From: an uncultured Chloroflexia bacterium
GTDB lineage: Bacteria; Chloroflexota; Anaerolineae; CG2-30-64-16
Assembly: GCA_963800615.1 (NCBI GenBank)
Contig: CAWDBO010000021.1
Coordinates: 504,166-568,165 of the forward strand
Length of the DNA stretch: 64,000 bases
Direction of reading: 5' to 3'
Part shown: positions 34,649 through 60,988 of the stretch, in pieces
Position numbering within the stretch: the first letter of the stretch is position 1
How the letters are laid out: every line of letters starts with the position of its first letter
Notes under the pieces: model-generated
What the model was told of the DNA's origin: nothing
Seen by the model: the letters and a program-made list of their open reading frames with translations, nothing else
Database searches by the model: none
Made by a program: the position numbers and the translations under genes

Positions 34649-36022
34649 CTACAGTGCGGCCAACCCCATCGTCCGCACCTCGCACTTGATCTCTTCGTAT
34701 AGTCCATTCCAGGCTTGCGTCGGGTGCACGGTCACCAGGTCATATACTTCGTTAAACGGTAAGCCCTGATTTTCCGGCGCGCCCTTCTGGAACAGGAACT
34801 CGTAACGCTTCACGAGCGCGACTGCCAGCTCGTTGGCCCGCTCGAGATCGAGCGCCTGCTCCGTCGCGGCCCGGCCCACTTCGGCCATGAACCGCGCCTC
34901 GAGCCCGCTGGCATGGTGGACCTTGCCGTCGGCCGCACCGCAGCCCTCCAGGTGGCTCCCGCTGACCGTGTGGACGATCGCGTTGGCCGCGGTCTCGTAC
35001 AGCAGCTCGCGCGTTCCCGCGCCCGACTTCGGGTAGATGTCCCCCACGATGACGCACGGCGACCGTTGGGCGAACGCCTGCGCCACGATGCTGCTGACCC
35101 ACAGCACCGCCCGCGTGCTGGTCGCCACGTGCCGGATGTCGATGGGGTGAAGCAGGTGATAGTCCGCCGCGCAGCACAGGTTGGCGAGGATGAAGGAGGC
35201 GGCTTGCACCACCGCGGACCCCGGCGCGGCCCCGCCCATGCCGCCGACGATCACGCACGCGAGGCTCGCATTCAGCATCCCATAATCCAGCGAGTTGATC
35301 ACCCGCGCCAGGTTGCGGTTCTCGATCTTCAGCTCGTTCAGCATCGGCACAAGGTGCGCGTCGCACGGCCGCATGAAAGCGGGACTCGCGACCGAGAGGT
35401 CGCCGATCTCGGACACGCTGCTCTGTGCGGCCAGCAGCCCCGTGCCGGGCCGCCCGGCCTGGCGCAGCGCCTCGCGCAGGTAAGCCAGCTCGCGCCGGGT
35501 CGCGGTGATCTCCAGCGGCGAGCCTGTCTCCACCACCCGGCCGTCCACGTGCGTCAGCGTGCCGCAGGTGACCATGTCGATCAGCCGCTCCTGCGCGTAC
35601 GAGAGGGTCATCGGGACGAAGAGCTGCTCGGGAACCGGGGTGCCCGGCGTGCCGCCCCACGCCTTCGGTGGGCGCCGGTCACAGACCGTGCGGGCATCGA
35701 GCGTGCGCGCGTCCTTCCCCTCCCCCAGCGTGATCGACCGCGGCGCGGCGCGCAGGCCCTGCAGCAGCTCGTCGGGCGTAAAGCGGACGGCCCGGCCGGT
35801 TGAGTAGTTGTAGACCCCCTGCCGCTCGGCCAGCTCGAACGCGGCGTCGAACAGCGCGCTCGCCCGGGCCGGGTCGTCGTTGATCACCCGCGTCTTGTCC
35901 CAGTCCAGCCCGTGCTTCTTGACCAGCTCGCGGGTGGTCATCGCCACTTCATAGTCCCAATCCGACGCGGACAGCGCCCGGCCTTGCTCGCTGCGTTCGA
36001 GGATTTCGAGGAAATTGAGCAC
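34649..36022 (-). CDS. MttB-superfamily (trimethylamine-methyltransferase-like) corrinoid-dependent methyltransferase, non-pyrrolysine type (MttB-1)
   Basis: 457-aa uninterrupted ORF; GTG start at 36022 with AAGGAG RBS; no in-frame TAG. Confidence 0.8.
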   Translation of the reverse strand: MLNFLEILERSEQGRALSASDWDYEVAMTTRELVKKHGLDWDKTRVINDDPARASALFDAAFELAERQGVYNYSTGRAVRFTPDELLQGLRAAPRSITLGEGKDARTLDARTVCDRRPPKAWGGTPGTPVPEQLFVPMTLSYAQERLIDMVTCGTLTHVDGRVVETGSPLEITATRRELAYLREALRQAGRPGTGLLAAQSSVSEIGDLSVASPAFMRPCDAHLVPMLNELKIENRNLARVINSLDYGMLNASLACVIVGGMGGAAPGSAVVQAASFILANLCCAADYHLLHPIDIRHVATSTRAVLWVSSIVAQAFAQRSPCVIVGDIYPKSGAGTRELLYETAANAIVHTVSGSHLEGCGAADGKVHHASGLEARFMAEVGRAATEQALDLERANELAVALVKRYEFLFQKGAPENQGLPFNEVYDLVTVHPTQAWNGLYEEIKCEVRTMGLAAL

Positions 36023-36064
36023 GCTGAGTCTCCTTGTGAGTGAGGTGCTTGGATCAGATCGCCA

Positions 36065-36236
36065 CGAGACCTCCGAGGTCCTCGCCAGCGCTGCTGGCGC
36101 AAGACCTCGGAGGTCAACTCGGACCTCGGAAGTTAGCTCGGAGCCCCGAAGTCAGCTCGTACCTCGGAGGTCAGCCCGTATCGAGGTGAACTCGGGGACT
36201 CGGACCTCGGAGGTCAGCTCGGACCTCGGAGGATGC
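36065..36236. repeat. Array of about 8 tandem 19-20-bp repeats (consensus GACCTCGGAGGTCAGCTCG) with the same palindromic core as the 34.4-kb hairpins
   Basis: Read directly; lies between the amidohydrolase 3' end and the MttB-1 RBS. Confidence 0.65.
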
Positions 36237-36244
36237 TAACCCGA

Positions 36245-37638
36245 GAACTCGGGATGTACGCGGCGGAACGGCGCTGCCGCTGCGTCGCGGCAGCATAATA
36301 GTCGGCGAACTCGGCGCACAGCTGCGCGCCCGGCCGATGATCGCTTCCTCGTCCAGGCTGACGAAGGCCCCGTCGCGGCGCACGAACGCGCCGTCGACCA
36401 GCACGTCGCACGTCTCGCTGCCCGCGCCGTTCGACGCCAGGGCCCAGAAGAGCGAGTCGCGGTCCAGCGGGAAGAGGCTGCTGTTGCGCCTCAGGTCGAA
36501 GGTGATGATGTCGGCCCGCATGCCCGGCTCCAGCGCGCCCACCTCGTCGCCCAGCCCCAGCACCCGCGCGCCGCCCGCCGTCGCCAGCTCGAAGATCGTC
36601 CGCGGGTCGAGCCCCCGCAGGGCGCGCGGCATGATGTTGTGGTGCTGGAGGACGGAGAGCATGACGCTGAACAGGTTGTGCGTCACGCAGTCGGTGCCCA
36701 GGCCCACGGGCACGCCCGCCGCCAGCATGTAGGGCACGTACGCGCAGTAACCGAACCACGCATTCGTCGCCGGGCAGTGAACCAGGGCGGTCCCCGTCTC
36801 CGCCAGGACGTCGATCTCGCGCTCGTTCAGCAGCGTGCCGTGAAACAGCAGCGGTCCGCGGCCCCAGCAGGCCCGCCCCGCGCATGTGCCCGATCAGCCC
36901 GCCCTCCGCGGCCCACAGCGCATCCGATCGTTCCTTCTCGTCCGGCGATTCCGCGACGTGGACCGCGAACTGCACGCCGTGCTTCTCGGCCAGCTCCTTC
37001 GACCGGCGCAGGAAGCGGTCGTTGCAGTTGAACGTCGCATTCGGGTGGACCCCCACCCGGATCAGCCCGCCGGCCGCGCCGTGATGGTCGCGGATCGCGG
37101 CCTCGGTGTGCGCCAGGTACTCGGCCTCGTCGCGCGCATCGGGCAGGGCCACGCTGGTGATCATCTGCGGGTGGATCACCGTTCGCGCGCCCGCCGCCAC
37201 CGACGCGCGGTAGATCGCCTCGGGGAAGATCATCGCATCCGCGTGGGTCGTCGCGCCGTGCTTGAGGACGTTGACCAGCCCGAACAGGGTCAGGTCGTAC
37301 GCGCGCTCTTCCGTGAGCCAGTTGTAGGCGGGCCAGTAGATGCGATCCATCGCATCCACGATCCCGGCCACCGGCTCCTGCAGCCAGCCCGGGATCAGCA
37401 GCGTGTGCGCCTCGCCGAGATGGTTGTGGGCGTCCACCAGCCCGGGCATGACCAGCTTGTCGCTCGCGTCGAGCGTCTCGATCCCCGGCCGCCCCCCGAC
37501 CAGCGCCTCGATCTCGGCCGTCGGCCCCACCGCCGCGATCCGCGCGCCCTCCACGTACACCGCGCCGCCCTCGACGATGGCGCCCGCGTCCGCCCGGCGC
37601 ACCAGGTAGCGGCAGTTGCGGATGAGGATTCCGTTCAT
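36245..37638 (-). CDS. Amidohydrolase-superfamily deaminase (MtaD / guanine-deaminase / SAH-deaminase-like); 2 frameshifts; 3' end inside the repeat array, exact stop uncertain
   Basis: N-terminus MNGILIRNCRYLV..MPGLVDAHNHLGE (HxH metal site) in 36214..37638; C-terminal pieces in 36827..38590 and 36171..36737 (..PVGLGTDCVTHN..). Confidence 0.6.
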
Positions 37639-37649: not shown

Positions 37650-38590
37650 CCTACTCGCGCGCGTACGGCACGCCCAGCTGGCTCGGCGCCTCCGAGCGCG
37701 CCCGGTTGACCATCATTGCGACGATCGCAAAGACATACGGGATCGCCAGCAGGATCTGGTACGGGATCTGCACGCCGATGCCCTGCACCTGGAGCTGGAA
37801 CGCATCGAGCAGCGCGAAGATCAGCGCGGCCAGCGTGATCCGCCACGGCAGCCAGTTGCCCTGCGATGACGATCACGATGGCGAGCCACCCCCGCCCCGC
37901 CGTGATCCCCGGCACGAACCGGGGCGACGCGCCCAGGGTGAGGGCCGCGCCCGCCAGCCCCGCCATCAGCCCGCCGAAGATGGTCGCCAGGTAGCGCAGC
38001 CGGGCCACGTTCACGCCCTTCGTGTCGACCGCCTTGGGGCTCTCGCCCACCGCCCGCAGCTGCAGCCCGTACTTGGTCCGGTACATGAAGAACCAGATCA
38101 CCGGCACCAGCAGGAAGGCCAGGTACGTCAGCGGCCGCTGCCCGAAGAGCACGGGGCCGGCAATGGGCAGGTCGGACAGCACCGGGATGTTCACCGGGTC
38201 GAACAGCCGGATGGTGACCAGGTCGCCCCGGAGGCCGAAGACCAGGCGCAGCAGGAACACCGACAGCCCCGCGCCGAGCAGGTTCAGCGCCATGCCGGTC
38301 ACGATCTGCTCCACCTTGAGCGTCACGGCCATGAACGCCATCAGCAGCGCCATCAGCCCGCCCGTCGCGGCCCCGGCCAGCAGGCCCAGCAGCAGCGAAT
38401 TGGTCCAGAAGGTCACGACGTAGCTGGTGAACGCGCTCAGCAGCATCATCCCTTCCACGCCCAGGTTCATGACGCCCGAGCGCTCGGTGACCATCTCGCC
38501 CAGCGCGGCCAGCAGCAGCGGCGTCGCCAGGCGCAGCGTGGAAGCCAGGATGCTAGCGATGACTGCCGTCTGCAGCAGCTGAGTCGGCAT
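37650..38590 (-). CDS. BMP-family ABC transporter permease 2; one frameshift
   Basis: N-terminal 240 aa in ORF 36827..38590 (MPTQLLQTAVIAS..); C-terminus ..FAIVAMMVNRARSEAPSQLGVPYARE then TAG near 37650. Confidence 0.55.
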
Positions 38591-39704
38591 CGGTTATCCT
38601 CTTGATCCGGAAGCGTGCGAGCACGAACGCGGCCAGCACGCACAACAGCAGGATGGCCTGCATCGCCTCGATAATCGCGGACGAAACGCCCGTCGTCGTC
38701 TGGAGCCGGGCCGCGCCGTTGGTCAGCCCGCCGAACAGGACCGCGGCCAGCACCACGCCCAGCGGATCGAGGTTGGCGAGCATCGCCACGATGATGCCCG
38801 TGTAGCCCAGCCCCGAGGCCAGGTCGAGCACCAGGCGGTACTGCACGCCGAACAGCTCGCCCGCGCCGGCCAGCCCCGCCAGCCCCCCGCTCAGGATCAT
38901 CACGACGACGATCGTGAGCGGTACGTTCGTGCCCTTGAACCGCACCGCGGTCGGATTGAAACCGAGCGCCCGTATCTCGAAGCCCAGCGGCGTCCGGTCC
39001 AGCAGGATCTTCACGAACGCAGCCGCGAGGAGCGCCACGAAGAGCCCGATGTGCAGGCCGGAGGCGGGCACAAGGTTCGGGAACCGCAGCGGCGCAGGGA
39101 TCAGCAGCGACTGCTGGTAGGCCGAGCTCGGGTCCTTCCAGGGACCGCCGTTCGAGACCATGAAGGCCACGAAATAGAGCATGATGTAGTTCAGCATCAT
39201 GGTGGAGATGATCTCGTCCACCCGGAAGCGCACCTTGAGCAGGCCGGATATCGCGCCCAGCAGCGCGCCGCCCGCCAGCGCAAAGACGAAGACCAGGACG
39301 AACAGCACCGGCCGTGGGTAGCTGCTGAACAGGGTGTAGGCGAAGAACCCGGCCGCGCCGCCCGCGATGAGCTGCCCCTCCTGCCCGATGTTCCAGATCT
39401 TGGCCCGGAAGGCGACGGCGGCCGACAGGCCGGTCAGGGTGAGGGTGGTGGCGCGCACCATCGTCTGCAGGACCGCCCGCCGGGTGCCGAACGCGCCCAG
39501 GAACAGCGCGCCGAATGCTTCGGCCACGTTCACCTTGGCGATGAGCAGAAACACGCTCGAAATCGCCAGGCCGACGATAATGGCAACTACGATCCACAGC
39601 ACCTGCGACCAGCGGCCCGCGTCCTCGCGCTGCTCGACGCGCCACCGCGGCCTTCTCCCGGCGTCCTGGGTCTCGGCTGCGAGGGATGTGTCGGGGTTGG
39701 TCAT
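38553..39704 (-). CDS. BMP-family ABC transporter permease 1
   Basis: ATG (MTNPDTSLAAETQ..) in an ATGA overlap with the upstream ATPase stop; about 380 aa with multiple TM helices (ORF 38553..40070). Confidence 0.65.
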   Translation of the reverse strand: MTNPDTSLAAETQDAGRRPRWRVEQREDAGRWSQVLWIVVAIIVGLAISSVFLLIAKVNVAEAFGALFLGAFGTRRAVLQTMVRATTLTLTGLSAAVAFRAKIWNIGQEGQLIAGGAAGFFAYTLFSSYPRPVLFVLVFVFALAGGALLGAISGLLKVRFRVDEIISTMMLNYIMLYFVAFMVSNGGPWKDPSSAYQQSLLIPAPLRFPNLVPASGLHIGLFVALLAAAFVKILLDRTPLGFEIRALGFNPTAVRFKGTNVPLTIVVVMILSGGLAGLAGAGELFGVQYRLVLDLASGLGYTGIIVAMLANLDPLGVVLAAVLFGGLTNGAARLQTTTGVSSAIIEAMQAILLLCVLAAFVLARFRIKRITDADSAAADGSHR

Positions 39705-41221
39705 GCTACCTCGTCCACGCAGCCCGCCATCAGCAGGCCGATCTGCTCCAGCCTGGCCTCCCCGGCTTCGAACACGCCCATGATCTGCCCCTTGTAGAGC
39801 ACCGCAATCCGGTCCGACAGGTCCATGATCTCGTCCAGATCTTCGGAGCTCAGCAGGATGCCCACGCCCTCCGCCCGCTTCTCCAGCAGCCTCCGGTGTA
39901 CGTATTCGATCACCCCCACGTCCAGGCCCCGCGTCGGCTGGTTCGCCAGCAGGGCCTGCGGGCAGTGGGTGAACTCGCGCGCCAGGATGATCTTCTGGAT
40001 GTTGCCGCCCGACAGGTGCTTCGTCGTCTGCTGCAGCGATGGCGTCTTGATCTCGAACGTCGAGACGCACATCTTTGCGAACTTCCGGATTTGCGGGAAG
40101 TTCAGGAACGGCCCGCGGCGGTACATCTGCGAGCGCTGCTGTCCGAGCAGCAGGTTCTCCGTCACCGAGAATTCGGGCACCAGGCCCTCGTGCAGCCGGT
40201 CCTCCGGCACGTGACCCACGCCCCGGTGCATCAGGTGGCCGGCCGACCGGTTCGTCACGTCCTCACCTTCGAGCAGCACCTGTCCCGACGTCGCCTTGCG
40301 CACGCCCGCGATGACCTCGAACAGCTCCTTCTGGCCGTTGCCCGAGATGGCTGCGAGCCCCAGGATTTCCCCCCGGCGCAGGGTCAGCGAAACCCCGCGC
40401 AGCGCCTCTTGCCCCCGGTCCCCCAGCGCGTGCAGGTCCTTGACCTCCAGCACGGTCTCGCTGCCGGGCGGGCAGTCCTTGTGGACGCTGAAGACGACTT
40501 CCCGGCCCACCATCATCCGCGCCAGGTCGGCCTTGCTCACGTCCGCGGTGTTGACGGTCGCGACGTACCGGCCCCGCCGGAACACGGTCACCCGGTCCGA
40601 CACCTGTTTGACCTCGTTGAGCTTGTGGGTGATCAGGATGATCGACAGGCCGCGCCGGGTCATCGCGCGGATCGTGAGGAAGAACTTCTCGGTTTCCAGC
40701 GGCGTCAGCACGGCCGTCGGCTCGTCGAGGATGAGCAATTCCGAGCCGACATAGAGGGCCTTGAGGATTTCAACCCACTGCTGCTCGCCCACCGAAAGCT
40801 GCCAGATGCGCGCGTGCAGGTCCAGTTGGATCCCGTACTCTTCGCACAGCTTCCGGAGCGCGGCTTCCACCTGCCGCAGGTCCGGGACGACGGGGGAGCC
40901 TGGCGTCCCGACGATGACGTTCTCGATCACCGTCAGGGGCGCCACCAGCGCGAAATGCTGGTGCACCATGCCGATGCCCAGCCGGATCGCGTCGCTCGGC
41001 GAGGTCAGCTTGACCGGCTGTCCCTTGTAGAAAATGCGGCCGGAGTCGGGATGGTAGAAGCCGTACAGGCACTCGGCCAGGGTCGACTTGCCCGCGCCGT
41101 TCTCGCCCAGCAGGCAGTGGATTTCGCCCCTCCGCACATCCAGCGAGACCGCGTCGTTCGCCACCACCTGGCCGAAACGCTTGGTCAGGGCTTCGACCCT
41201 CACGATGGATGTTTCTTCCAT
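39701..41221 (-). CDS. BMP-associated ABC transporter ATP-binding protein, duplicated NBD
   Basis: ATG at about 41221 (MEETSIVRVEALTKRFGQVVANDAVSL..GENGAGKSTL); intact 506 aa. Confidence 0.8.
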   Translation of the reverse strand: MEETSIVRVEALTKRFGQVVANDAVSLDVRRGEIHCLLGENGAGKSTLAECLYGFYHPDSGRIFYKGQPVKLTSPSDAIRLGIGMVHQHFALVAPLTVIENVIVGTPGSPVVPDLRQVEAALRKLCEEYGIQLDLHARIWQLSVGEQQWVEILKALYVGSELLILDEPTAVLTPLETEKFFLTIRAMTRRGLSIILITHKLNEVKQVSDRVTVFRRGRYVATVNTADVSKADLARMMVGREVVFSVHKDCPPGSETVLEVKDLHALGDRGQEALRGVSLTLRRGEILGLAAISGNGQKELFEVIAGVRKATSGQVLLEGEDVTNRSAGHLMHRGVGHVPEDRLHEGLVPEFSVTENLLLGQQRSQMYRRGPFLNFPQIRKFAKMCVSTFEIKTPSLQQTTKHLSGGNIQKIILAREFTHCPQALLANQPTRGLDVGVIEYVHRRLLEKRAEGVGILLSSEDLDEIMDLSDRIAVLYKGQIMGVFEAGEARLEQIGLLMAGCVDEVA

Positions 41222-41348
41222 GCGCCTCTTGCTAACCGTCGTGCTCTCGAACCGGCGCCGCTTGGCGCCCGCTCTATGAGCAGGGAGAGGTGTCTCCCGC
41301 GCTCGGGCGGAAGACACCTCTTCGCGTCATGACTTGCGTCCGTGTCCG

Positions 41349-42524
41349 CTACTGATCGGATTTCGGGGTGTCGATATTGACGGGCACCGTGAACTTGCCG
41401 CTCATGATGTCGGCCTGCTTGGCCTTGATCGCGTCCAGCACGTCCTGCGGCACCTGGGCGGCCTGCGGGTTCCAGCCCGCCAGGTCCGATCCGCCGTCCT
41501 TCATGCCGAACCAGACCGGCTTGTCGTTGCCGGCCCACGGCTTGCCTTCGGCCGCATGCGCGTACCACTGGTCGATGGCCCACTTGATCCCCGGGTCCCA
41601 CCGGGCCACGGTGCTGTTGGGCACGTTCTTCGGTGCCAGCGCGCTCTGGTCGCCGAAGTTGCCGAAGCACTGGATGTTCTTCGACGTGCAGGCTTCCCAC
41701 CCGTCGGCGAGCTGCAGCATGTAGTCGACGCCGGCCGCGGCCTGCGCGCTCGTCGCCTCCGCGCCCTTGATCGGGTCGTACCAGCTCTGGATGAACGAAA
41801 CCGTCGTCTTCACGTTCGGGTTCGCATCCTTCGCGCCCTGGAAGAACGCGTTGATCTCGTCGTTGACGTCGTCGGCTTCGAAGGTGCCCACCGCGCCGAC
41901 CCGGTTGGTCTTGGTCATCTTGCCTGCCATCATGCCCAGCAGGTAAGCCGGCTCGTGCACCCGCATATACACCCACTGCTGGTTCTTGCCGAGCCCGCGG
42001 TTGCCCGAGCCTGTCACCACGAACATCGTGTTCGGGTACTGGTCCATCACCTTCTCGACCTGGTCCGAGTAGGTGCTGTTCGTCCAGATGATGTCATACT
42101 TGCCGCTGTCGGCATAGTTCTGAATCACCGGCGTGGCGTCGTCGCCAAACGTGTTGTCGGTCACCTGGTAGGTGATGTTCAGCCCGTGGGGGCTTTCGGC
42201 CTTGACGCGGTCCAGTGACTTCAGGAACTGCGCGTCCCACTGGCTTTCGAGGCTGCAGCAGGTGATGACGGCGATACGGAGGTCCTTGGGTGCGGCGCCG
42301 CTGCTCGCGGCCGGGGCCTTTGTCGGCTCAGCTGCCGGCGCTTGTGCCGCGGGTGCCTTCGTCGGCTCGGCCGCGGGTGCTTGGGCTGCCGGCGCCTGTG
42401 TCGCAGGTGCCTGGGCAGGTGCGGCAGGGGCCGGCGCGGCGGGCGCTGCGCAGGCCGCGGTGACGAGGATCACCACGACCAGTGCAACTGCGAGGACAGC
42501 GAGTGAGTTCCTTCTCTCCAGCAT
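41349..42524 (-). CDS. BMP-family (PnrA/Med-like, nucleoside-type) ABC substrate-binding lipoprotein
   Basis: ATG at 42524 with AGGAGGAAGG RBS; lipobox LVTAACAAP; APA/QAP linker; BMP fold. Confidence 0.8.
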   Translation of the reverse strand: MLERRNSLAVLAVALVVVILVTAACAAPAAPAPAAPAQAPATQAPAAQAPAAEPTKAPAAQAPAAEPTKAPAASSGAAPKDLRIAVITCCSLESQWDAQFLKSLDRVKAESPHGLNITYQVTDNTFGDDATPVIQNYADSGKYDIIWTNSTYSDQVEKVMDQYPNTMFVVTGSGNRGLGKNQQWVYMRVHEPAYLLGMMAGKMTKTNRVGAVGTFEADDVNDEINAFFQGAKDANPNVKTTVSFIQSWYDPIKGAEATSAQAAAGVDYMLQLADGWEACTSKNIQCFGNFGDQSALAPKNVPNSTVARWDPGIKWAIDQWYAHAAEGKPWAGNDKPVWFGMKDGGSDLAGWNPQAAQVPQDVLDAIKAKQADIMSGKFTVPVNIDTPKSDQ

Positions 42525-42649: not shown

Positions 42650-42661
42650 AGGGGGTGAGGT

Positions 42662-44035
42662 TCAGTTCAGAGGCAACCCCCACCCTTTCGCCTCCTGCTT
42701 TATCTCCTCGTAAAGACCCATCCATTCACGGCTCGGCTCGACCGTCTCGACGTCGTAGACCTCGTCAAACGGCCGGCCGTACGGCTTCTTGTCAAGCTGC
42801 TCGCGATACGCTTCGTACGCGCACCGCACGATCTCGTCCGCGCGGCCCCGCTCCAGCCCGGCCGCCGCCCGCATGACCTCTCCGTTGAAACGCGCCTCGA
42901 GCCCGCTGAAGTGGGCCGGAATGCTGCCGGTGGCCGAGCGCGGGCCCAGGATGCGGCTGCAGCCGGAAACGGTGCAGAGCGTCGTAAAGGCAACGCATTC
43001 GTGTAGTAACACTCTCGTCCCGGGACCGCCCACGGGCGTCAGGGTCATGTTCGTCATCAGGTGCGTGTTCCGGGCCAGCGCCTGGCAGGCGAGGCTCGTC
43101 GCCTGCATGACCTCTTTTCCCGTATCGTTGAACTGGAACGGGTGCGTCGGCGACGACCCGACGCAGGTTGCCATGAAGACCGCGCTGAGCGCGATCATCG
43201 CCGCCGTTATCAGGACGGCCTGGCCTTCGACGCCGCCCCCCAGCCCGCCGTAGATCGGGTTGGCGTAGGGATCGACGATCCCGCCCATCCGGATGGCGTG
43301 CGTTAGCTTGTTAAGGATATCGAAGTTCGTCTTGAGCTCGGACAGGATGCCGAACGTGTGCAGGTCGGTCGACCGAAGTCCCAGGGGATTCGCCGTCGAA
43401 AGCTGACCGGCAGCGCTCATGCTCAACATCACGCCGGTCCACGCCATGCCCGGCCGGCCTGCGCGCTCCAGAACCTGCCGCATCAGGTCGACCTCTTCCC
43501 ACGCCGCGAGGATCTCGGTGGGCGAGCCGACCCGGATCTCCTGGCCGCGCACGGTCATCAGGCTCGGCGCACAGGTCACGTCGACCAGCGGCTCTTTCAC
43601 GTAGCTGAGCATCACGGGAACGAACAATTCCTCCGGCAGCGGCGAGCCGATCGGACTGCCCATGTTCAGGGGTGGAAATGCAGCGCCAATTGGCCGGAAG
43701 CGTTCGTGGACCGCGTCGGTTCCGGTTCCCTCCCATACGTCGGCAGGCGCCTCACGTAGGAGGTCGAGGAGCTCCTGCCGGCTGTGCAGAATAACCCGGT
43801 TGGTGGATTGGCAGTATACACCGCAGCCCGCGAGAAAGTCCAACGCGGCTTCGAAGGTGCGGTCCGCCAGGTCGTCGTCGAGGTTGACGATGTGGTCCCG
43901 GTCGACGTGGACGCCGTACGCCCGCACGACCCGGCGGATGCCCTGGGTCACTTGCCGGTTGAACGCTTCCTCTTCCAGGAGCGGGCCGGTCAGGCTGCGG
44001 TTGAGGAGTTCCAGCATCCTGCCTGTGAGGTCCAT
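42662..44035 (-). CDS. MttB-superfamily methyltransferase, non-Pyl (MttB-2)
   Basis: 457-aa uninterrupted ORF with full-length MttB-family similarity. Confidence 0.8.
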   Translation of the reverse strand: MDLTGRMLELLNRSLTGPLLEEEAFNRQVTQGIRRVVRAYGVHVDRDHIVNLDDDLADRTFEAALDFLAGCGVYCQSTNRVILHSRQELLDLLREAPADVWEGTGTDAVHERFRPIGAAFPPLNMGSPIGSPLPEELFVPVMLSYVKEPLVDVTCAPSLMTVRGQEIRVGSPTEILAAWEEVDLMRQVLERAGRPGMAWTGVMLSMSAAGQLSTANPLGLRSTDLHTFGILSELKTNFDILNKLTHAIRMGGIVDPYANPIYGGLGGGVEGQAVLITAAMIALSAVFMATCVGSSPTHPFQFNDTGKEVMQATSLACQALARNTHLMTNMTLTPVGGPGTRVLLHECVAFTTLCTVSGCSRILGPRSATGSIPAHFSGLEARFNGEVMRAAAGLERGRADEIVRCAYEAYREQLDKKPYGRPFDEVYDVETVEPSREWMGLYEEIKQEAKGWGLPLN

Positions 44036-46778: not shown

Positions 46779-47291
46779 CTAATCTTCCTCCGTTGGAACG
46801 CGCGGCCGGGCTTCGCGCAGCCGGGAGATGTCGGCGGGGTTCTGCGCCCAGTCGTACGTCGCCTTGATCCATTTGAGCATTTCGAAGGTTTCGACGCGGA
46901 TCACGCCGGGGATGGCGCCGAGGGTGCCGGTGACGAACTCGAGAAGCTCTTCCCGCGAGCGAAACCACCCCTCCGCCAGCAGGTCATAGCGGCCCAGCGT
47001 CCTGCCGATGAACCGCAGCTGCTGCAGCCCGCTCACCGCCTCCTGGATAACCTCCATCCGGTTGTATTCCACCTGCAGGCCGATCATGGCGAGGATCGAG
47101 TAACCGAGCGCGCTGGGGTTCACGAGGATGCCCTCGCGGTACACGCCGGCCTTCAGGAGCGCAGCCCGGCGGCGGCGCACGGTGGTTTCCGTGCTGAACA
47201 GTCGAGTGGCCAGTTCGGCGTTGGTCAGCGTCGGGTCGTCGGATAGGGCGGCGAGGAGGCCGAGATCCAGGTCGTCAAGCGCCACGGGCAT
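46779..47291 (-). CDS. Lrp/AsnC-family transcriptional regulator
   Basis: ATG at 47291 (MPVALDDLDLGLLAALSDDPTLTNAELATRL..); HTH plus RAM domain. Confidence 0.8.
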   Translation of the reverse strand: MPVALDDLDLGLLAALSDDPTLTNAELATRLFSTETTVRRRRAALLKAGVYREGILVNPSALGYSILAMIGLQVEYNRMEVIQEAVSGLQQLRFIGRTLGRYDLLAEGWFRSREELLEFVTGTLGAIPGVIRVETFEMLKWIKATYDWAQNPADISRLREARPRVPTEED

Positions 47292-50233: not shown

Positions 50234-50269
50234 CCGCGGCCGACCCCGACCGGCCCCGGCATCACCACA

Positions 50270-52669: not shown

Positions 52670-52750
52670 CTCACAATCTGCCCTTGTCACCCCCACCTCC
52701 CCGTACGGGCGACCGGCCGGTCGCCCGTACCCCCGCATGGCCTCCATCCC

Positions 52751-55086
52751 CTACGCGCCTCCATCGATGGCCGCCAGCACTCTCTCGGGGGTGAGGGGTA
52801 TCTCGTTGATGCTGACGCCGAGCGCGTCCGCAACCGCGTTGGCGATCGCGGGCGCCGTCGACGTCACCGTCGACTCGCCGATGCCCTTAGCGCCGAGCGG
52901 CGCGTGCGGCTCCGGTATCTCGACCGTCGTCACCTTCATGGGCGGCACGTCGTCGGCGGTGGGGATCAGGTACCGGTCGAGCGAGCCGTTCAAGGTCACC
53001 CCCTGCTCGGTCACCAGCTCCTCCAGCAGCGCATAGCCCAGGCCCATCGTGGCCCCGCCTTCCAGCTGCCCCCGCACCGAGCCGGGGTTGATGATCCGGC
53101 CCGTGTCCTGGGCAATCACCAGCTCCTCGACGGTCACCTCGCCGGTCTCGGTGTCGACCAGGACCTTCGCCACCTGGGTTCCGAAGGTAAACACCTCGTG
53201 TGCGTACGGGTAGCCGTCCGCGGGGAAGTCGGCCGCGTATTCCATCGCATAGTACCCCTCTGCGTGCAGGCGGCGGCCGGTGGCATGACCCCTCGCGGCC
53301 AGCGCCGCCACGGACACCGGCAGCGCCTCATCTTCCGCATACACCCGCCCGCCCCGCAGGGCCAGGAGTCCCCTGGGCAGGCCCGTCTCCTCCGCGGCCA
53401 CGTCGAGGAGCGTCTCACGGATCGGCCGGGCCGCGTCGAGCACCGCGTTGCCGCTGAGGAAGGTCTGGCGGCTGCCCACGGCCGGCCCTGAGTCCGCCGT
53501 CCGCTCCGTGTCCGGCCCGATGACCCGGATGCTGGGGAGCTCGACGCCGAGGGCTTCCGCCGCGATCTGCGCCAGCGCCGTGTGGATGCCCTGGCCCATC
53601 TCGGTCGCGCCGGTCCGCAGCACCACCGAGCCGTCGCGCGCCATGTCCAGGCTCGCGGCGGAGTGGTCCGGCACGTTCCGTCCGAGCCCGATGGTGAAGA
53701 TGATCGAGCCCATGCCCCAGCCGCGCCGCAGGTGTGGGGCCGGCTGCCTGGGCTCTTCCCCGCGGCCTGCCCACCCCGACAGCCTCGCCGCCTCCTCCAT
53801 CGTCGCCCGCGCGGGCCGCCCCTCGCGGACGGTCGCGCCGGTGGGCAGCACGGTTCCCGTATCGAGCACGTTGCGCAGGCGGATCTCGAGGGGATCGAGG
53901 CCCGTGGCCCGCGCCAGCTCGTCCATCTGCCGTTCCCGCGCAAAGGCCGCCTGGGGGATGCCGTACCCCCGCATCGCGCCGCAGAGCGGGTTGTTGGTCA
54001 GCACCGTGTAGGCTTCGATGTGCGCGTTCGGGATGGCGTACGGCCCGCCCGCGGTGACTGCCACCAGGCTCATGACCTCCGCCCCCGCTGTGACGTACGG
54101 CCCGGTGTCGCCGATCGCCGTGACGTCGATGGCAGTAATCCGCCCGTCGCGCGTGGCCCCTGTCTTGTAGCGGATCGTCACCGGGTGCCGCTTGACGTGG
54201 GTCCGCATGGACTCTTCCCGCGTCCGTACGATCCGCACCGGCCGCCCCGTCGCCTGCGCCAACAGCGCCGCGTGAATCTGCACGTGCGCTTCGTCCTTGC
54301 CGCCAAACGCCCCGCCGATCGCCGGGGTGATCACCCTCACCTGGTTCTCTGGCAGCGCGAGCGCGCGGGCGATCTGCCGCCGGTCGCGGAAGGGCGCCTG
54401 GCAGGACGCGTATACCACGATGGATCCGTCCGCAGCGACTGCCGCCAGCGCACCTTCGGTCTCCAGGAAGGCATGCTCAACCCGCTGCGTGCGGTAGGTG
54501 TTCTCGATGATGATGTCGGCCTCGGCGAAGCCGCGGCCGGGCGAGCCGTGATCGAGCACCAGGTGGCTGCACACGTTGGGTCTGTCAGACCAGACCCGGT
54601 GCGCCCCTGGCTGCATCGCTTCGACCGCGTCGTAAATGCCCGGCAGCGGTTCGTACTCCACCTCGATCGCGGCAAGGGCAGCCTCGGCCGCTTCGGGACT
54701 TTCGGCCGCCACGGCTGCGACGATATCGCCCTGGTAGCGCACCCGGTCGGTCACGAAGAGCGGCTGATCGGCGAGGTCCGAGTAGAGGTAGCTGTTCTTG
54801 CCGGGAACGTCAGCATGTGTGAGAACCGCGACCACGCCCGGCAGGCGGCGGGCGCGCGCCGTGTCCAGCCGGAGGATGCGGGCGCACGGGTGCGGCGGAT
54901 GGAGCACCCGGCCGGTGAGCATGCCGGGCACGGGCGTGCCGAGCAAGGGCGTGCCGAGCAAGGTAAGGTCAGCCACGTAGCGCGCCTGCCCCGTCACGAC
55001 CTGCCGGGAAGTTACCGCGGGCGCGGGCCTCCCGGCCACCTCCGGCAGCCCGGTTTCCTCAAGGGCACGAGGCTCGCCTCTGTTCA

Positions 55087-55087
<1 letters not shown>
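52751..55087 (-). CDS. Xanthine-dehydrogenase-family molybdopterin-binding large subunit (CoxL/XdhA/NdhL-like)
   Basis: ATG (MNRGEPRALEETG..) at 55087 in an ATGA overlap with the small-subunit stop; 779 aa. Confidence 0.75.
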
Positions 55088-55576
<489 letters not shown>

Positions 55577-55579
55577 CCA

Positions 55580-56457
55580 CAGCAGCCTTCCGCCTGCCTG
55601 TGACTGCAGCCACAGGTTCTCCAGCGCGCCGCCGTGTCTGCACTTCGACCATCCGGCGCCGGTAGGCCGCGCTGGCCCGGATGTCGGAGATCGGCGTGCA
55701 CTGCCGCGCCGCGGCCTCCGCGGCTGCACGGATGACCGGCTCGTCCAGGACCGATCCCACCAGCAGCGCTTCGGCAGCGGTGGCCCGCATCGGCGCCGGC
55801 GCCACGGAGCCCAGCGCCACCCGCGCCTCCTCGACCCTGCCGTCGCACGACAGCGTCAGCCGGACCGCCACACTGACTACGGCGATTGCCATGGCCTGGC
55901 GTCGGCCCATCTTGAAGAACGTGGCGAACGTGCGGGGCGGGGCGGGGGGCAGGATGATCCGGGTGAGGAGCTCGCCGGCCGCGAGCGCGGTGCGGCCCGG
56001 ACCGCAGAAGAAGTCGGCCAGCGGAAGCCGCCGCTCCCCGCGGCCCGCCGATTGGAGGCACACCGAGGCGTCGTAGACAAGGAGCGCGGGCGCCGAATCG
56101 GCGGCGGGCGAGGCGTGGCAGAGGTTGCCGGCGAGCGTGCCGCGGTTCTGAATGGGCGTGCTGCCGACCGAGGCGCATGCGAGGCGGAGCGCCGGGTAGT
56201 CTGCGAGCTCCGGCGCGCCGTCGGCAACCAGTCGGTGGGTCACCGTCGCCCCGATTGCGACCTCACGCCCCGCAGACACGATCCCGCGCAGGGGCAAGCG
56301 GCCGAGGTCGACCAGGGCTTCCGGGCGCAGGGCATCCGGCACGCATGGCGGGGACCAGGTCGGTGCCTCCCGCCAGCGGCCGCGCATCCTCGTACGCGGC
56401 CAGCATGTCCAGCGCCTCGGCCAGCGTGTCCGGGCGGAAATACCTCGGGCAGCTCAT
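55580..56457 (-). CDS. FAD-binding medium subunit of the XDH-family enzyme (CoxM/XdhB-like); frameshifted
   Basis: ATG (MSCPRYFRPDTLAEALDMLAAYEDARPLAGGTDLVPAMR) in an ATGA overlap with the MttB-4 stop; body in ORF 55146..56387 (..IQNRGTLAGNLCHASPAADSAP..). Confidence 0.6.
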
Positions 56458-57832
56458 CCTTCCAGCGGCAGCCCCCACTGCCTTGCGGTCTCGGCGACCT
56501 GGTCGTAGATCGCGGCCCACTCGGCCCGGGGCTGCAGCGTCGCCGGGTCGTACGCTTCGTCGAAGGGGACGCCCACCGGCTTCGTGCCAAGCAGGTCCTG
56601 GTATTCGGTCACTGCCCGGCGGACGATCTCGTCGGCCTGCTCGCGGCTCAGCCCGGCCGCGGCCCGGGCGACCTCGCCGTTCCAGCGCGCCTCCAGCCCC
56701 GTGCAGTGGTTCGGCACGACGCCCACCGCGGAGCGGACGCCCAGCACCGCGACGCGCCGCACGAAGAGGCCGTGGCAGCCATCGCGATGCACTCGTAGAG
56801 CAGCGACGGCGTGCAAGGTCCGCTGATCGGGGAGGTCATGAACTCGGTGAAGAGGTTGGTGTTGCGCGCGAGCGCGGCGCAGGCGGCGCTGACCGCCCGC
56901 AGGATGTGCGGATCGGTGGAGTTGGAGTTGAACGGGTGCGTGGGGCACGACTCGACGCTGTGGGGGAAATAGACCATCTGCAGCGCCAGGAAGCCGGCGA
57001 CGATCAGGACCGCGACGCCTTCTGCCGGGCCGCCGAGCCCGCCGAGGATCGGGTTGTAGAAACCCAGGATGACGCCGTCCTGCTCGATGCTGTGCGCGAC
57101 CTTGTTCAGCAGCTCGTCGTTCGTCTTCATCTCGCTGATCAGCGGGATGACGTGCACGTCGCTGGGACTGAAGCCGCCGCGGCTGATCGAGGAGAGGTGC
57201 CCGATGTCGCTGATCGCCATCTCCACGCACATGCGGGCAATGCCGGGCCGGCCCGCCCGGCGAGCCGCTTCCAGGCCGCAGCGGGCTTCCTGCCACGACG
57301 CGATGATCTCGTAAGCGGAGCGCGAGCGGACCTCCCGACCGAAGCTGGTCGCAAGGGTGCCTGGAACGACCAGGTCGATGAGCGGCTCCTGCCAGTAGGA
57401 TTGCATGATGGTAATCCACCGGTCCTCGGAGAGGGGAGTCCCAATCGGTCCGCCGCTCACATGAGGAGGCCGCGGGTCGCCGACCGTGCGCCGGCGCCAG
57501 ACCCGGGCGTCCGCGCCCTCGCCGTAGCTGATCTCGTCGGGACCCTGCCGGGCGGCCTGCTCGACCTCGGCGCGGGTAAAGGTGATCAGGCGCTGGGCGC
57601 CCTTGTGGAAGATGCCGGAGCCGCAGAGGAAGTCGACCGCGGCCTGGAAGACCCGGTCGACCAGGTCGTCGTCGTACTGGATGATGCGCCGCCTGTCGAA
57701 CTTGATGCCGTACTGCTTGATGACCCGTGCGACGCCGCCGGCAACGACCCTGAGGTCGAACTCCTTCTCGTCGACGAGCGGGCCGCTGTAGGCGCGGTCC
57801 AGGACGTCGAGCATCCGAGCGGTCTTCTCCAT
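56454..57832 (-). CDS. MttB-superfamily methyltransferase (MttB-4), translationally coupled to the XDH-family genes; about 1 frameshift near 56780
   Basis: ATG at 57832 with GGGAGG RBS (MEKTARMLDVLDRAYSGPLVDEKEF..) in 56648..57862; C-terminus (..GLEARWNGEVARAAAGL...QWGLPLEG) in 56454..57956. Confidence 0.7.
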
Positions 57833-58144: not shown

Positions 58145-58937
58145 ATGGAAGCCCAGGTCCCGATCCGTCCCGCTTCGCTTGCACAGCAAGTCCTGCAGAT
58201 CCTCCTCGACCGGATCCGCCAGGGTGTGTATCCGCCGGGGTCGCAGCTTCCGCCCGAGAACCAGCTTGCCACCGAGTTTGCCGTCAGCCGCGCCACCGTG
58301 CGCAGTGCGGTCGAGACCCTGGCCGGGCGCCGCCTGATCGTGCGCCGGCAAGGCGTCGGAACCTTCATCAGCCGCCTCTCGGGGCTCGAGAATCCCCTCA
58401 ACGAAGCTATGGATTTTGCCGAATGGATTGCCGGCGCGGGCTACCAGCCGGGCTATCACTTCGCGCGGGTTGCGGTGGTGCCTGCGGGCGAGCACCTGGG
58501 CGCCGCGCTGGCGCTGCCTGCAGACGCCCGGGTGCTGCAGACCTACAAGGTGTTCACAGCGGACGGCGAGCCAGTGATCTATGCCATCAATCACATCCCG
58601 GTGGCAGTGCTCGGGCCGGCGCTGGCGGAGCAGGCGGTCGCGGATCCTTGCATGACCGAGCCCCTGTTCGATTTCCTCGAGCAGCGATGCGGCGAGCGCT
58701 CCGAGTACAGCATTGCGAGCGTACGCGCCGAGCTTGCGGCGAACTGCCCGTTTCCCGGCTTTGACGCGAAGCCCGGAACGCCCGGTGCTCGTCATCGAAG
58801 AAGTGGCCTACAATGCGAGCGAAATTCCGATCTGGCATTCTTACGAGTATTACCCCGGCAACCTGATTAGTTTCGATCTCGTGCGCCAGCGAGGCTCGTT
58901 CTCGCGCTCGGCGAATCGTGGCGCGCCCCGATCATAG
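58145..58937 (+). CDS. GntR-family regulator, HutC subfamily (UTRA effector domain); one frameshift near 58780
   Basis: wHTH (LPPENQLATEFAVSRATVRSAVETL) plus UTRA (58145..58870); C-terminus ..PVLVIEEVAYNASEIPIWHSYEYYPGNLISFDLVRQR in 58713..58937. Confidence 0.7.
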
Positions 58938-58963
58938 AAGCTCAACTCAATAGGGAGGATGGC

Positions 58964-59617
58964 ATGGCGGATGCAGCGTTGCGGAAGGCGATCCATGACC
59001 GCATCATCGACGGTGACAGTGATGCGATCGGCGAAGATGTCGATCGGGCCCTCGCGGCCGGCGACAGCCCACTCACGCTGATCGAGGAGGTGCTGAACCC
59101 GGCCCTCAAGGAGGTCGGCGACGCGTTCGACCGGGGCGACATCTACCTCCCCGAACTGATCATGGCCGCGGAGGCCATGCAGGCGGCCGTCGCCGTCGTG
59201 CAGCCGCACCTTGCCGCAAGCCAGCAGCAGGTCAGGAGCGCCGGACGGGTGGTGATGGCGACGGTCCAGGGCGACGTACACGACATCGGCAAGAACATCG
59301 TGTGCGCGGTGCTGCGGGCCAATGGGTTCGAGGTGTTGGACCTGGGCCGCGACGTGCCGGCCGCGGAAGTTGTGGCGAAGGCGCGCGAGTTCAAGGCCGA
59401 CATCATCGGCCTCTCGACGCTGCTCAGCACGACGATGCCATACTGCCGGGACACGGTCCGGCTGCTCGAGGAGCTTGGGATTCGCGACCAGTACAAGGTG
59501 TTCATCGGCGGTGGTCCGGTGACGCCGCAGTACGCCGAGGGGATCGGGGCGGTTTACGGCGGCGCCCACGCGGAGGCCGGCGTTCAGATGATGCTGCACG
59601 CGATGGGGAGGAGCTAA
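58964..59617 (+). CDS. Cobalamin-binding corrinoid protein 3 (intact)
   Basis: ATG with GGGAGGATGG RBS; cap domain plus VQGDVHDIGKNIV (DxHxxG); 217 aa. Confidence 0.85.
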   Translation: MADAALRKAIHDRIIDGDSDAIGEDVDRALAAGDSPLTLIEEVLNPALKEVGDAFDRGDIYLPELIMAAEAMQAAVAVVQPHLAASQQQVRSAGRVVMATVQGDVHDIGKNIVCAVLRANGFEVLDLGRDVPAAEVVAKAREFKADIIGLSTLLSTTMPYCRDTVRLLEELGIRDQYKVFIGGGPVTPQYAEGIGAVYGGAHAEAGVQMMLHAMGRS

Positions 59618-59620
59618 CCC

Positions 59621-60988
59621 ATGGTCGATTTCATCGAGGTCATGCGCCGCACCGAGAGCGGCCCGTACATGTCCGAGCGCGACTTCGACATCGAGATGAT
59701 CTTCAAGACCATCAGCGCGCTGGCAAAGAAGTACGGCGTGAAGTTCAACCGGAAGGAACTGATCACGCTCCAGCCCGAAATGGTGGACGGCGCCTTCCAG
59801 GCGGGACTGGAACTGGCCGAGATCGCCGGCATGTTCTGCATCAACACCTCCCGGCGCATCACTTTCACCCGTCAGGAACTGCTCGACGCGCTGCGGGTCG
59901 CGCCGCGCGAACTGCAAATCGGGTGGGGGAAGGATCAGCGCACGATCCGGGCGAAGGAGTGGGGCGTGCCCGCGCAAGCCGTTCATCTGGGGCGGTTTCT
60001 CGGGCGCGGCCATGACGGAGGAAGGGTACCGGGCGTCGATCCGGTCGTACATCAAGGAGCCCTGGTGGATGCGCTGGGCCACGGCAGCCTCTGGTGCATC
60101 GACGGGATGGAGGTGCGCACCGGCTCGCCGATGGAGGTGCGCGCGACCCGCCAGGAGCTGCTGTACGTGCGGGAGGCGCTCGCCCGCGAGGGCCGGCCCG
60201 GGATGCCCTTCGTGGCCGCCGAGAGCAGCACGACCGTCCTCGGCGACCTGGCCGTGATGCAGCCCAACCTGATGCCGCCCGGCGCATTCCACTTCGTGCC
60301 CACGCTGAACGAACTCAAGATCGACTACCACAACCTGACCAAGGTGATGTCGAGCTACGAGTACGGGGTGTACAACATCAACCTGGTCGACGCGATCGTG
60401 GGCGGTTACGCGGGTGGGCCGGAGGGCGCCGCCATCGTCACCATCGCCGCGTTCATCCTGGGGCAGATCGTCTGCCGGGCGTCCGTGTCGCTCTGCCATC
60501 CGGCGCACAACAAATGGGTTTCGACCAGCCCGGCGCCGTGCATCTGGGCCGAGAACATCGTGGGCCAGGCGTTTGCCCGGAACGCGCCGATCATCACGAT
60601 CGGCGACGTCTGGACCAGCGCGGGCACCGGCACGAAGGACATCCTGCAGGAGATCGCGGCTATCTCGATCACCAAGTCGCTGACCGGCAACAACCCGCAC
60701 GGCGTGGGCGCGACCAACGGCAAGTTCCACCACGGCAGCGGCCTCGACGTGCGCTGGATGGCGGAGTCGGCGCACGCCGCGTATAACAACCAGCTATCCC
60801 TGGAACGAGGCAACGAGATCGTCTGCGCGCTGGTCGACCGCTACGAAGGGAAATTCGCCAATCCCGACCTGGGCAAGCCGTACGACCAGGTGTACGACGT
60901 CGCCACTGCGCGGCCGCTGCCGTGGTGGCAGGAACTGTACGACGAGAACCGGCAGGAGTTCGCGCGCGACTTCGACCTGCGGCTCTAG
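59621..60988 (+). CDS. MttB-superfamily methyltransferase (MttB-5); a pair of compensating frameshifts around 59975-60090
   Basis: 455-aa ORF, MttB-like over most of its length; alternate-frame ORF 60012..60257 (MTEEGYRASIRSYIKEP..) holds the conserved stretch for that interval. Confidence 0.75.
   Translation: MVDFIEVMRRTESGPYMSERDFDIEMIFKTISALAKKYGVKFNRKELITLQPEMVDGAFQAGLELAEIAGMFCINTSRRITFTRQELLDALRVAPRELQIGWGKDQRTIRAKEWGVPAQAVHLGRFLGRGHDGGRVPGVDPVVHQGALVDALGHGSLWCIDGMEVRTGSPMEVRATRQELLYVREALAREGRPGMPFVAAESSTTVLGDLAVMQPNLMPPGAFHFVPTLNELKIDYHNLTKVMSSYEYGVYNINLVDAIVGGYAGGPEGAAIVTIAAFILGQIVCRASVSLCHPAHNKWVSTSPAPCIWAENIVGQAFARNAPIITIGDVWTSAGTGTKDILQEIAAISITKSLTGNNPHGVGATNGKFHHGSGLDVRWMAESAHAAYNNQLSLERGNEIVCALVDRYEGKFANPDLGKPYDQVYDVATARPLPWWQELYDENRQEFARDFDLRL

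Follow-up and report, generated by a model that had tools for sequence, protein, structure and literature searches.

We analysed a 64-kb window (the whole stretch of 64,000 nucleotides under study) from the genome of an uncultured Chloroflexia bacterium, on the 649,641-bp contig CAWDBO010000021.1, in which five genes of the MtmB methyltransferase family, here named M1 to M5, lie with three corrinoid-protein genes, C1 to C3. Coding segments were delimited from third-position GC and then scanned with Pfam, and homologous genes in the window were located by tblastn using intact copies as queries. The genes belong to two conserved catabolic gene clusters in a high-GC, Anaerolineae-like Chloroflexota genome. 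Cluster A runs on the minus strand from 47333 to 34649 and encodes, in order, an Lrp regulator, M3, C2, C1, M2, the substrate-binding protein BmpA, a double ATPase, two permeases, amidohydrolase A and M1, with gaps of -64 to 27 nt and then 191 nt ahead of M1. Cluster B consists of a minus arm with M4, a FAD-binding subunit, a molybdoenzyme of the xanthine dehydrogenase (XDH) family and amidohydrolase B, and of a divergent plus arm with a GntR/UTRA regulator, C3, M5, the substrate-binding protein BmpB and an ATPase gene running off the window.

The five methyltransferase genes had been predicted from the sequence to be MttB paralogs. Five homologous genes were indeed found by tblastn and Pfam at the predicted positions, namely M1 (34649..36022, minus strand, 457 aa), M2 (42662..44035, minus, 457 aa), M3 (45367..46775, minus), M4 (56454..57832, minus) and M5 (59621..60988, plus), but the family proved to be a different one. 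In a Pfam scan at E ≤ 0.001, the sole match of all five genes was PF05369 (monomethylamine methyltransferase MtmB), with E values from 1e-18 to 2e-94, and none of the five matched the MttB family (PF06253). M1 (E = 2e-94, full length), M2 (E = 1e-88) and M5 (E = 1e-70) covered profile positions 2-450, and fragments of M3 and M4 matched the same profile. Because only PF05369 was matched, and because MttB, MtbB and MtmB are without significant mutual sequence homology (PMC9842639), the MttB label is wrong and the reassignment to MtmB is certain. The comparison with MttB-superfamily betaine enzymes that had been proposed would thus use the wrong reference set. M1 aligned with Methanosarcina barkeri MtmB1 (1L2Q) over residues 7-454 (E = 1e-62), and this end-to-end alignment predicts a TIM-barrel fold for M1. 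No NCBIfam model matched the MtmB homologues. The family is small: of 1.84 billion representatives (50%-identity clusters), 1291 matched it at E ≤ 1e-3, and 327 did so at E ≤ 1e-30.

Pyrrolysine was absent from all five proteins. In 1L2Q it is the X of GRPGMGVXGPE (Pyl202), and the equivalent position held a sense codon in 5/5 genes: Leu197 in M1 (CTG; GTGLLAAQ), Thr200 in M2 (ACC; GMAWTGVM), Asn in M3 (GMHINDVA), Met in M4 (GIARMCVE) and Val198 in M5 (GTG; GMPFVAAE). The coding frames of the five genes contained no in-frame stop, in agreement with the original prediction that amber codons are lacking, that none is a pyrrolysine enzyme and that the interruptions are frameshifts. No tRNA gene was detected in the window. 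The five proteins are therefore non-pyrrolysine members of the MtmB family. Of the presumed pyrrolysine contacts of M. barkeri MtmB (E205, E229, E259 and Q333), none of the five paralogs retains E229, E259 or Q333, most of the substitutes being hydrophobic, and E205 persists in M4 and M5; we gave this comparison no weight.

M1 and M2 were uninterrupted, as predicted. M5 had been thought to need a frame correction, but it is an intact ORF of 455 codons, and since a single high-scoring segment pair (HSP) spans the entire orthologue at locus L080 with 66% identity, none is needed. M3 and M4 do need correction, at two sites and one site, respectively. M3 lies in three frames (-3/-1/-2) owing to two single-base insertions near 46478 and 46225; its junctions AAAPG|SVRLGTG and RRDAAAA|VEALRKAGR align without gaps, and the repaired protein has 468 aa. 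M4 lacks one G of a GGG run at 56747 (CGGGTG to CGGTG), four orthologues run gap-free across this point with 65-70% identity on both sides, and repair gives 459 aa. After repair, both proteins agree exactly in length with the other paralogs. About 30 single-base frame switches of this kind were found within Pfam domains across the window, or about 1 per 2 kb, affecting permeases, ATPases, Dak1/Dak2, an FGGY kinase, a RuBisCO-like protein, an IF-2B gene, both amidohydrolases and three UroD genes, one of which (UroD3) carries a pair of compensating shifts lying within some 60 nt of each other at about 15700-15800. These switches are best read as uncorrected assembly indels and not as gene decay, and the interruptions of M3 and M4 are read in the same way because similar switches occur throughout the window. 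Frameshifts do occur in the sequence as given, and M3 and M4 could on that ground be taken for true pseudogenes in decaying clusters. This is extremely improbable, however, as all three lesions are single-base indels in G/C runs, the corrected frames are stop-free with undiminished orthologue identity on either side, and like switches extend to housekeeping-type transport and sugar genes. The pattern suggests an unpolished long-read assembly, in which any ORF-based annotation of the contig would be fragmented.

For comparison we collected related loci. An M1-type profile run against species-representative genomes yielded 80 loci, nearly all of them in metagenome-assembled genomes of Anaerolineales or other Chloroflexota, plus Pelolinea submarina, with a top match 75% identical; scanning metagenomes with an M2/M4 profile gave 75 further loci. 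The resulting 155 loci provided 207 full-length homologues for a comparison of signatures at the pyrrolysine position. The five window proteins share 30-45% pairwise identity and are 28-32% identical to M. barkeri MtmB, and each represents its own conserved orthologous group with its own signature at the pyrrolysine site. M1-type proteins carry GMGM-L-AAQS, with the L in 81/84 members; the residue is T or N in the M2 type, N or E in the M3 type, V or I in the M5 type, and M in 26/26 orthologues of the M4 type. In the M4 type, the pyrrolysine position and the one following it are occupied by an invariant Met-Cys (R-M-C-V-E-M). Orthologues of M2 were found in many loci at 60-74% identity. The paralogs are thus old and divergent and not recent, near-identical duplicates of one enzyme. 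Their distinct conserved signatures support distinct specificities, and the proteins probably differ in substrate, as the original prediction had proposed. By sequence they would be substrate-specific first methyltransferases (MT1), transferring a methyl group from the substrate to Co(I) of a cognate corrinoid protein.

Three corrinoid-protein genes had been predicted at 44063-44711, 44708-45365 and 58964-59617, and all three proved to have B12-binding domains and the DxHxxG motif, which confirms them; the end of C2 is shifted to 45364, as position 45365 is out of frame. Each comprises cap and Rossmann domains with a D[LV]HDIG motif (3/3). C1 (44063..44707, minus; B12-binding E = 1.5e-26; DLHDIG) is 68% identical to its orthologue, and its start is provisional, probably owing to an N-terminal indel. 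C2 (44708..45364, minus; DVHDIG) was found by tblastn with C3 at 44% identity in frame -1. C3 (58964..59617, plus; DVHDIG) carries the B12-binding and B12-binding_2 domains and scored 200 bits against TIGR02370, below the cutoff of 215.3. Three of the methyltransferase genes adjoin a corrinoid gene, M2 with C1, M3 with C2 and M5 with C3. Neither M1 nor M4 has an adjoining corrinoid gene in the window, although their orthologues often do, so five MT1 genes share three corrinoid proteins here. At L081, L088, L090 and L074, a corrinoid-protein gene stands between amidohydrolase A and the M1-type gene; the corresponding 191-nt gap in the window (36022-36214) does not contain it.

Both clusters also encode an importer with a binding protein of the BMP family. 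In cluster A, BmpA (BMP/PnrA family; 41349..42524, minus; PF02608 E = 7e-31) has the probable start MLERRNS... in an ORF that reaches 42725, and is accompanied by a double ABC ATPase (39701..41317, minus; two ABC_tran domains, E = 9e-47) and two BPD_transp_2 permeases (38553..39707 and 37651..38590, both minus, the latter with one frameshift near 37857). In cluster B, the purine-base-type protein BmpB (61204..62454, plus; PF02608 E = 9e-38) is followed by the ABC ATPase of a second importer (62502..64000, plus; ABC_tran), which has two frameshifts, with orthologue HSPs in three frames. BmpB matched AtzT (6PI5, E = 3e-68) and a Brucella protein (3S99, E = 4e-65), both over the full length, and its match to the nucleoside binder PnrA/TmpC was weak; BmpA matched 6PI5 at E = 5e-28 with the stacking Trp retained. 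AtzT binds guanine at 110 nM and adenine at 2.5 µM, and 3S99 holds adenine (PMC6834077). BmpA and BmpB both retain the aromatic sandwich and the Ser ligand of AtzT/3S99. Asn218, the guanine amino contact, is Leu in BmpA and Ile in BmpB, while Asn220 is Asp and Glu165 is Ser or Asp; because of these changes, the ligand is probably a modified purine-like base and not guanine itself. Behind the signal sequences of BmpA (41349-42725), BmpB and a sugar-binding protein (25891-27024) lie long Ala/Pro/Thr/Gln-rich repeats, with a 17-letter unit repeated in BmpA.

The catabolic enzymes of the clusters resemble those acting on nucleobases. Amidohydrolase A (36171..37638, minus; TRZ/ATZ type, guanine-/8-oxoguanine-deaminase-like) shows Amidohydro_1 over two frames with a frameshift near 36852 and orthologue-guided HSPs in frames -2 and -3, and the top NCBIfam and PDB matches of its orthologue fall in the TRZ/ATZ, guanine-, 8-oxoguanine- and MTA-deaminase group. 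Amidohydrolase B (51436..52747, minus; cytosine-deaminase subfamily; Amidohydro_3 E = 2e-37; frameshift near 52483) has an orthologue scoring 337 bits against NF005748 and matching cytosine deaminase 1K6W at 7e-77 and AtzC at 6e-43. The molybdoenzyme (52751..55729, minus) contains Fer2, Fer2_2, Ald_Xan_dh_C and MoCoBD_1/2 in one ORF. Its top NCBIfam model was pucD at 611.6 bits, below the equivalog cutoff of 783.65; by sequence it is thus an XDH-family member that does not reach the pucD/XdhA equivalog score. Its FAD-binding subunit (55629..56387, minus; FAD_binding_5, CO_deh_flav_C) lies alongside. The 2Fe-2S small and molybdopterin large subunits share a 992-codon ORF in the window and are separate genes in L013 and L043, so the single ORF may be a real fusion or an indel by-product. 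A gene for an allophanate-hydrolase C-terminal domain recurs in 8 related loci (L144, 1601-1978; L098, L099, L104, L107, L108, L110 and L112) and would be in keeping with a nitrogen-rich ring being degraded via urea or allophanate.

A separate regulator accompanies each cluster, as had been predicted. The Lrp/AsnC gene at the head of cluster A (46779..47333, minus; HTH_24, AsnC_trans_reg) had no matches in the related loci and is therefore not conserved, and the HutC-type GntR/UTRA gene of cluster B (58145..58870, plus; GntR E = 1.5e-20, UTRA 1e-11), divergent from M4, has counterparts in 16/35 related loci. Rfam searches of the window and of seven intact related loci detected no riboswitch, and hence gave no RNA clue to the ligand.

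The association of M2-M5-type genes with the importer, amidohydrolase and XDH-like genes was retained in relatives, where these genes are interleaved as in the window. The window gene orders recurred at 55-75% protein identity in L043, L074, L013 and L024, with the order of cluster A repeated in L081, L084, L088-L090 and L093, and that of cluster B in L124, L125, L129, L135, L139 and L141. In L043 the series reads RACo, TetR, amidohydrolase B, XDH, FAD, M4; GntR, M1-like gene; amidohydrolase A, importer, M2, C1, C2, M3. In L080, the C3-M5 orthologues are immediately preceded by an adenine deaminase gene, and in L024 an adenosine deaminase gene adjoins the C3 orthologue. Context statistics were restricted to loci of at least 10 kb, comprising 35 with M2-M5-type genes and 57 with only M1-type genes. 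Any nucleobase-type gene was present in 33/35 of the former and 5/57 of the latter; this held for the amidohydrolase (31/35 against 3/57), the BMP binding protein (24/35 against 3/57) and the XDH-family enzyme (15/35 against 3/57), whereas an ECF transporter was found in none of the 35 and in 40/57. The loci with M2-M5-type genes carried on average 2.8 MtmB genes, and the M1-only loci 1.0. Family, gene order, the retained gene association and the lack of pyrrolysine are all direct observations. In L036 (17152-19141), and also in L007, L018, L034, L048 and L052, the M1-type context holds a corrinoid protein, an MtmB homologue, an ECF transporter (S component PF09819, CbiQ, double ATPase), RACo, a PF13769 protein, a homocysteine S-methyltransferase-domain protein and a true MtaA-like UroD. 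This set resembles a complete system in its own right, whose methyl acceptor may be a thiol or homocysteine.

As predicted, the window contains neither a RamA-type activase nor a pterin methyltransferase. RACo/RamA (PF14574) was absent by Pfam in the scanned segments and by tblastn with a RACo protein from the related loci (E ≤ 0.01); the pterin-binding methyltransferase (PF00809), a candidate second methyltransferase (MT2) passing methyl from the corrinoid to an acceptor, was absent by tblastn at E ≤ 1e-3; and no homologue of homocysteine S-methyltransferase (S-methyl_trans) or GcvT was found in the window. Among the related loci, RACo was present in 12/35 with M2-M5-type genes and 24/57 M1-only, the Pterin_bind methyltransferase in 11/35 and 2/57, homocysteine S-methyltransferase in 0/35 and 15/57, and MtaA-like UroD in 1/35 and 13/57. 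As MT2 and activase are present in related clusters and not in the window, they must lie outside it, and by analogy a Pterin_bind MT2 and RACo are likely encoded elsewhere in this genome in the usual bacterial arrangement. In L043 (22-3904) the two clusters are contiguous and end in the TetR and RACo genes, and in the window they are parted by TPR-repeat genes (47834-51207, plus). This genome thus seems rearranged between clusters A and B, which may explain why no activase lies nearby. A GcvT-family gene (folate-binding aminomethyltransferase) stands beside corrinoid and MtmB genes within clusters at L013 (7978-9258), L120 and L140, and may point to another one-carbon route leading to tetrahydrofolate.

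In the original prediction, the role of methylcorrinoid:acceptor methyltransferase was given to three UroD-family genes of the window, in a methanogen-like arrangement. The genes themselves were confirmed as weak PF01208 matches, all frameshifted: UroD1 (3999..5064, minus; E = 4e-19; frameshift near 4830) has 'MHSDG' in place of HxC (HSD), UroD2 (5069..6191, minus; E = 9e-8; frameshift near 5320) has HCD, and UroD3 (15410..16557, minus; E = 4e-17) has at least three frameshifts. The HxCG of UroD3 aligned with that of MtaA, and a true MtaA-like UroD does occur in the cluster in the 13 M1-only loci of relatives noted above. The function nevertheless appears very unlikely for the window genes. 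They lie 18-40 kb from the clusters with no adjoining corrinoid-protein gene, in a GntR/FCD, DHDPS-family and FAA-hydrolase operon or beside melibiase/glyoxalase genes. The match of UroD3 to MtaA (4AY7; E = 1.6e-6) was confined to the C-terminal third, with HTCG retained but PGCG changed to PGGG and thus the third Zn ligand lost, whereas the cluster-linked UroD of L036 matched 4AY7 over its full length at 1.8e-33; tblastn with the latter found nothing in the window at E ≤ 0.01. The window-type UroD was present in 0/35 loci with M2-M5-type genes and 1/57 M1-only loci. The three UroD genes are probably outside the system, and because related M2-M5-type clusters carry Pterin_bind and RACo, the arrangement is likely an ordinary bacterial one and not methanogen-like.

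Taken together, the genomic context points to purine-like N-heterocycles over betaines. We propose that the two clusters serve corrinoid-dependent demethylation of N-methylated purine-like heterocycles, and we put the probability of this reading, drawn from gene context only, at about 0.5. The observation itself is solid, and the substrate proposal is a testable hypothesis with about even odds for the broad class. From the context we infer the substrate class, the methyl acceptor and the direction of the pathway as follows. An N-methylated purine-like base would be imported via the purine-base-type BMP importers and bound by an MtmB paralog, and Co(I) on the corrinoid protein would take the methyl group. 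The free base would then be deaminated and hydroxylated by the co-encoded amidohydrolases and XDH-like enzyme, while the methyl group would pass to tetrahydrofolate through a pterin-binding MT2, and a RACo-type activase would repair oxidised corrinoid. With several paralogs in a cluster, demethylation could be specific for the methyl position or for the base. Purines methylated at a ring nitrogen, for instance 7-methylguanine or 1-methyladenine, are cationic, as are quaternary amines, on which the one characterised non-pyrrolysine MtmB acts, and this resemblance makes the leaving-group chemistry plausible. The full pathway, an O2-independent demethylation of N-methylated purines or nucleobases by position- or base-specific non-pyrrolysine MtmB enzymes with the base going to deaminases and the XDH-like enzyme and the methyl group to tetrahydrofolate, is a more tentative proposal, to which we give rather less than an even chance. 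Its candidate substrates include 7-methylguanine, 1-, 3- or N6-methyladenine and methylxanthines.

Several points weigh against this proposal. The substrate class is read from gene neighbourhood alone, and the matches of the BMP binding protein, the amidohydrolases and the XDH-like enzyme were all below curated equivalog cutoffs, which leaves room for other N-heterocycles, for instance s-triazines, pterins or pyridinium compounds, as the actual ligands. The window is without MT2 and activase and thus holds an incomplete pathway. Elsewhere, M1-type genes occur with an ECF transporter, homocysteine S-methyltransferase and MtaA-like UroD. The loci are phylogenetically non-independent, with L085-L087 near-identical; despite this, the contrast between the 35 loci with M2-M5-type genes and the 57 M1-only loci is large. 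To our knowledge no corrinoid-dependent demethylation of purines is known; literature searches found none, nor anything linking MtmB or corrinoid methyltransferases with purine catabolism or xanthine dehydrogenase. A preprint reports anaerobic caffeine N-demethylation in sediments, which it credits to methanogens, while the Anaerolineae that became enriched are presumed there to be no more than fermenters; we regard this as a weak lead and not as evidence. Finally, the only characterised non-pyrrolysine MtmB, MtqB, uses choline and tetramethylammonium and no heterocycle (PMC13044021).

The substrate range of MtqB raises the question of whether the window paralogs might likewise demethylate aliphatic quaternary amines (choline, tetramethylammonium, betaines), with the purine-type genes as mere neighbours, in essence the substrate idea of the original prediction. 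In the MtqB clade, a Met and a Cys close to the ligand are also reported to be fully conserved, and the M4 type has Met-Cys at the pyrrolysine position, at what may be the same sites. We consider this reading unlikely, since neither the window nor the conserved neighbours include a BCCT or OpuA-like betaine/choline transporter, the MtmB genes are interleaved with purine-type genes in an order kept at 55-75% identity over dozens of loci, and each of the five paralogs shares about 30% identity with M. barkeri MtmB and with the other four. Methylamine itself would be the substrate if the amidohydrolases first freed it from N-methylamino heterocycles and the MtmB homologues then used it without pyrrolysine. 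Such release is known for N6-methyladenine deaminase or AtzB/AtzC-type enzymes, the amidohydrolase groups include alkylamine releasers (the AtzC match above, and TRZ/ATZ and hydroxydechloroatrazine ethylaminohydrolase matches), the family is named for monomethylamine, and MtqB showed slight monomethylamine demethylation (PMC13044021). Pyrrolysine, however, is regarded as necessary for methylamine activation, and here the residue is L, T, N, M or V; moreover, a single product would not require five divergent paralogs with differing site signatures, which makes this route improbable.

Xenobiotic azines, among them methylated or alkylated s-triazines, are likewise improbable as substrates in place of natural purines. 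The closest structural relative of BmpB is AtzT, from an atrazine plasmid, the amidohydrolases match TRZ/ATZ and AtzC-like enzymes, and 8 related loci carry the gene for an allophanate-hydrolase C-terminal domain. Yet AtzT itself was judged purine-binding (PMC6834077), adenine deaminase, adenosine deaminase and the pucD-like XDH occur in the clusters, and a natural substrate better fits clusters that are widespread in environmental Chloroflexota and deeply diverged.

Compared with known systems, the proposed purine-type demethylation would operate in the manner of the bacterial MtgB/MtgC/MtgA-RamA demethylases, though with enzymes of the MtmB fold family, to which MtqB also belongs. Like the window proteins, MtqB of the MtqB/MtqC system of Methanococcoides methylutens Q3c belongs to PF05369 without pyrrolysine, adjoins its cognate corrinoid gene and acts as MT1 of a three-component corrinoid system; by its description, it differs in being archaeal, in feeding coenzyme M via MtbA and in using aliphatic quaternary amines (PMC13044021). 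Here, the host is bacterial, the five paralogs are divergent, the context is one of purine-type importer, deaminase and XDH genes, and the MT2 of relatives is of pterin type. The pyrrolysine-containing MtmB/MtmC of M. barkeri (1L2Q/1NTH) shares full-length homology, the conserved GRPG strand bearing Pyl202 and a corrinoid partner of the same family, but in the window L, T, N, M or V stands in place of Pyl202, which makes monomethylamine very unlikely as substrate, and there is no linkage to pyl genes or to a methanogenesis context. The architecture expected from the related loci, with MT1, corrinoid protein, pterin-binding MT2 to tetrahydrofolate and reductive activase, is the same as in MtgB/MtgC/MtgA-RamA of Desulfitobacterium hafniense and in the MtcB, MtpB and MtyB systems of Eubacterium limosum, whose methyltransferases belong to the unrelated MttB family (PF06253) and have betaine substrates and betaine-type transporters. 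A possible functional analogue is NdmABCDE of Pseudomonas putida CBB5, where several position-specific N-demethylases act on one purine scaffold and feed xanthine catabolism. The Ndm enzymes are O2-dependent Rieske oxygenases that release formaldehyde, whereas the chemistry here would be an O2-independent methyl transfer to Co(I).

Elsewhere in the window, a minus-strand region (17367-31208) encodes a RuBisCO-like protein (RLP; 18141-19314), a xylose-isomerase-like TIM-barrel protein, an FGGY kinase, a 3-hydroxyisobutyrate-dehydrogenase-like enzyme, a sugar ABC transporter and Dak1/Dak2, and beyond these an MtnK-like kinase (28806-29866), an MtnA-like IF-2B isomerase (30101-31208) and an RpiR regulator. 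This region may represent an RLP-linked sugar or methylthio-sugar pathway.

Although non-pyrrolysine MtmB homologues are no recent discovery, a function has been established for only one (tetramethylammonium/choline, 2026; PMC13044021), and the rest are listed as of unknown function. Our analysis associates five orthologous groups of MtmB with genes for purine-type uptake and ring catabolism and provides a short list of candidate substrates, while the family correction steers follow-up away from the wrong reference enzymes. If the proposed demethylation of purine-like bases is true, N-methylated nucleobases would join the compounds demethylated by anaerobes, as a new substrate class for corrinoid methyltransferases. 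Such bases are abundant from RNA and DNA turnover, and the class also includes methylxanthine pollutants. The proposal would further give a first physiological role to a large bacterial branch of non-pyrrolysine MtmB homologues, and would explain why Anaerolineae-type Chloroflexota hold so many of these genes.

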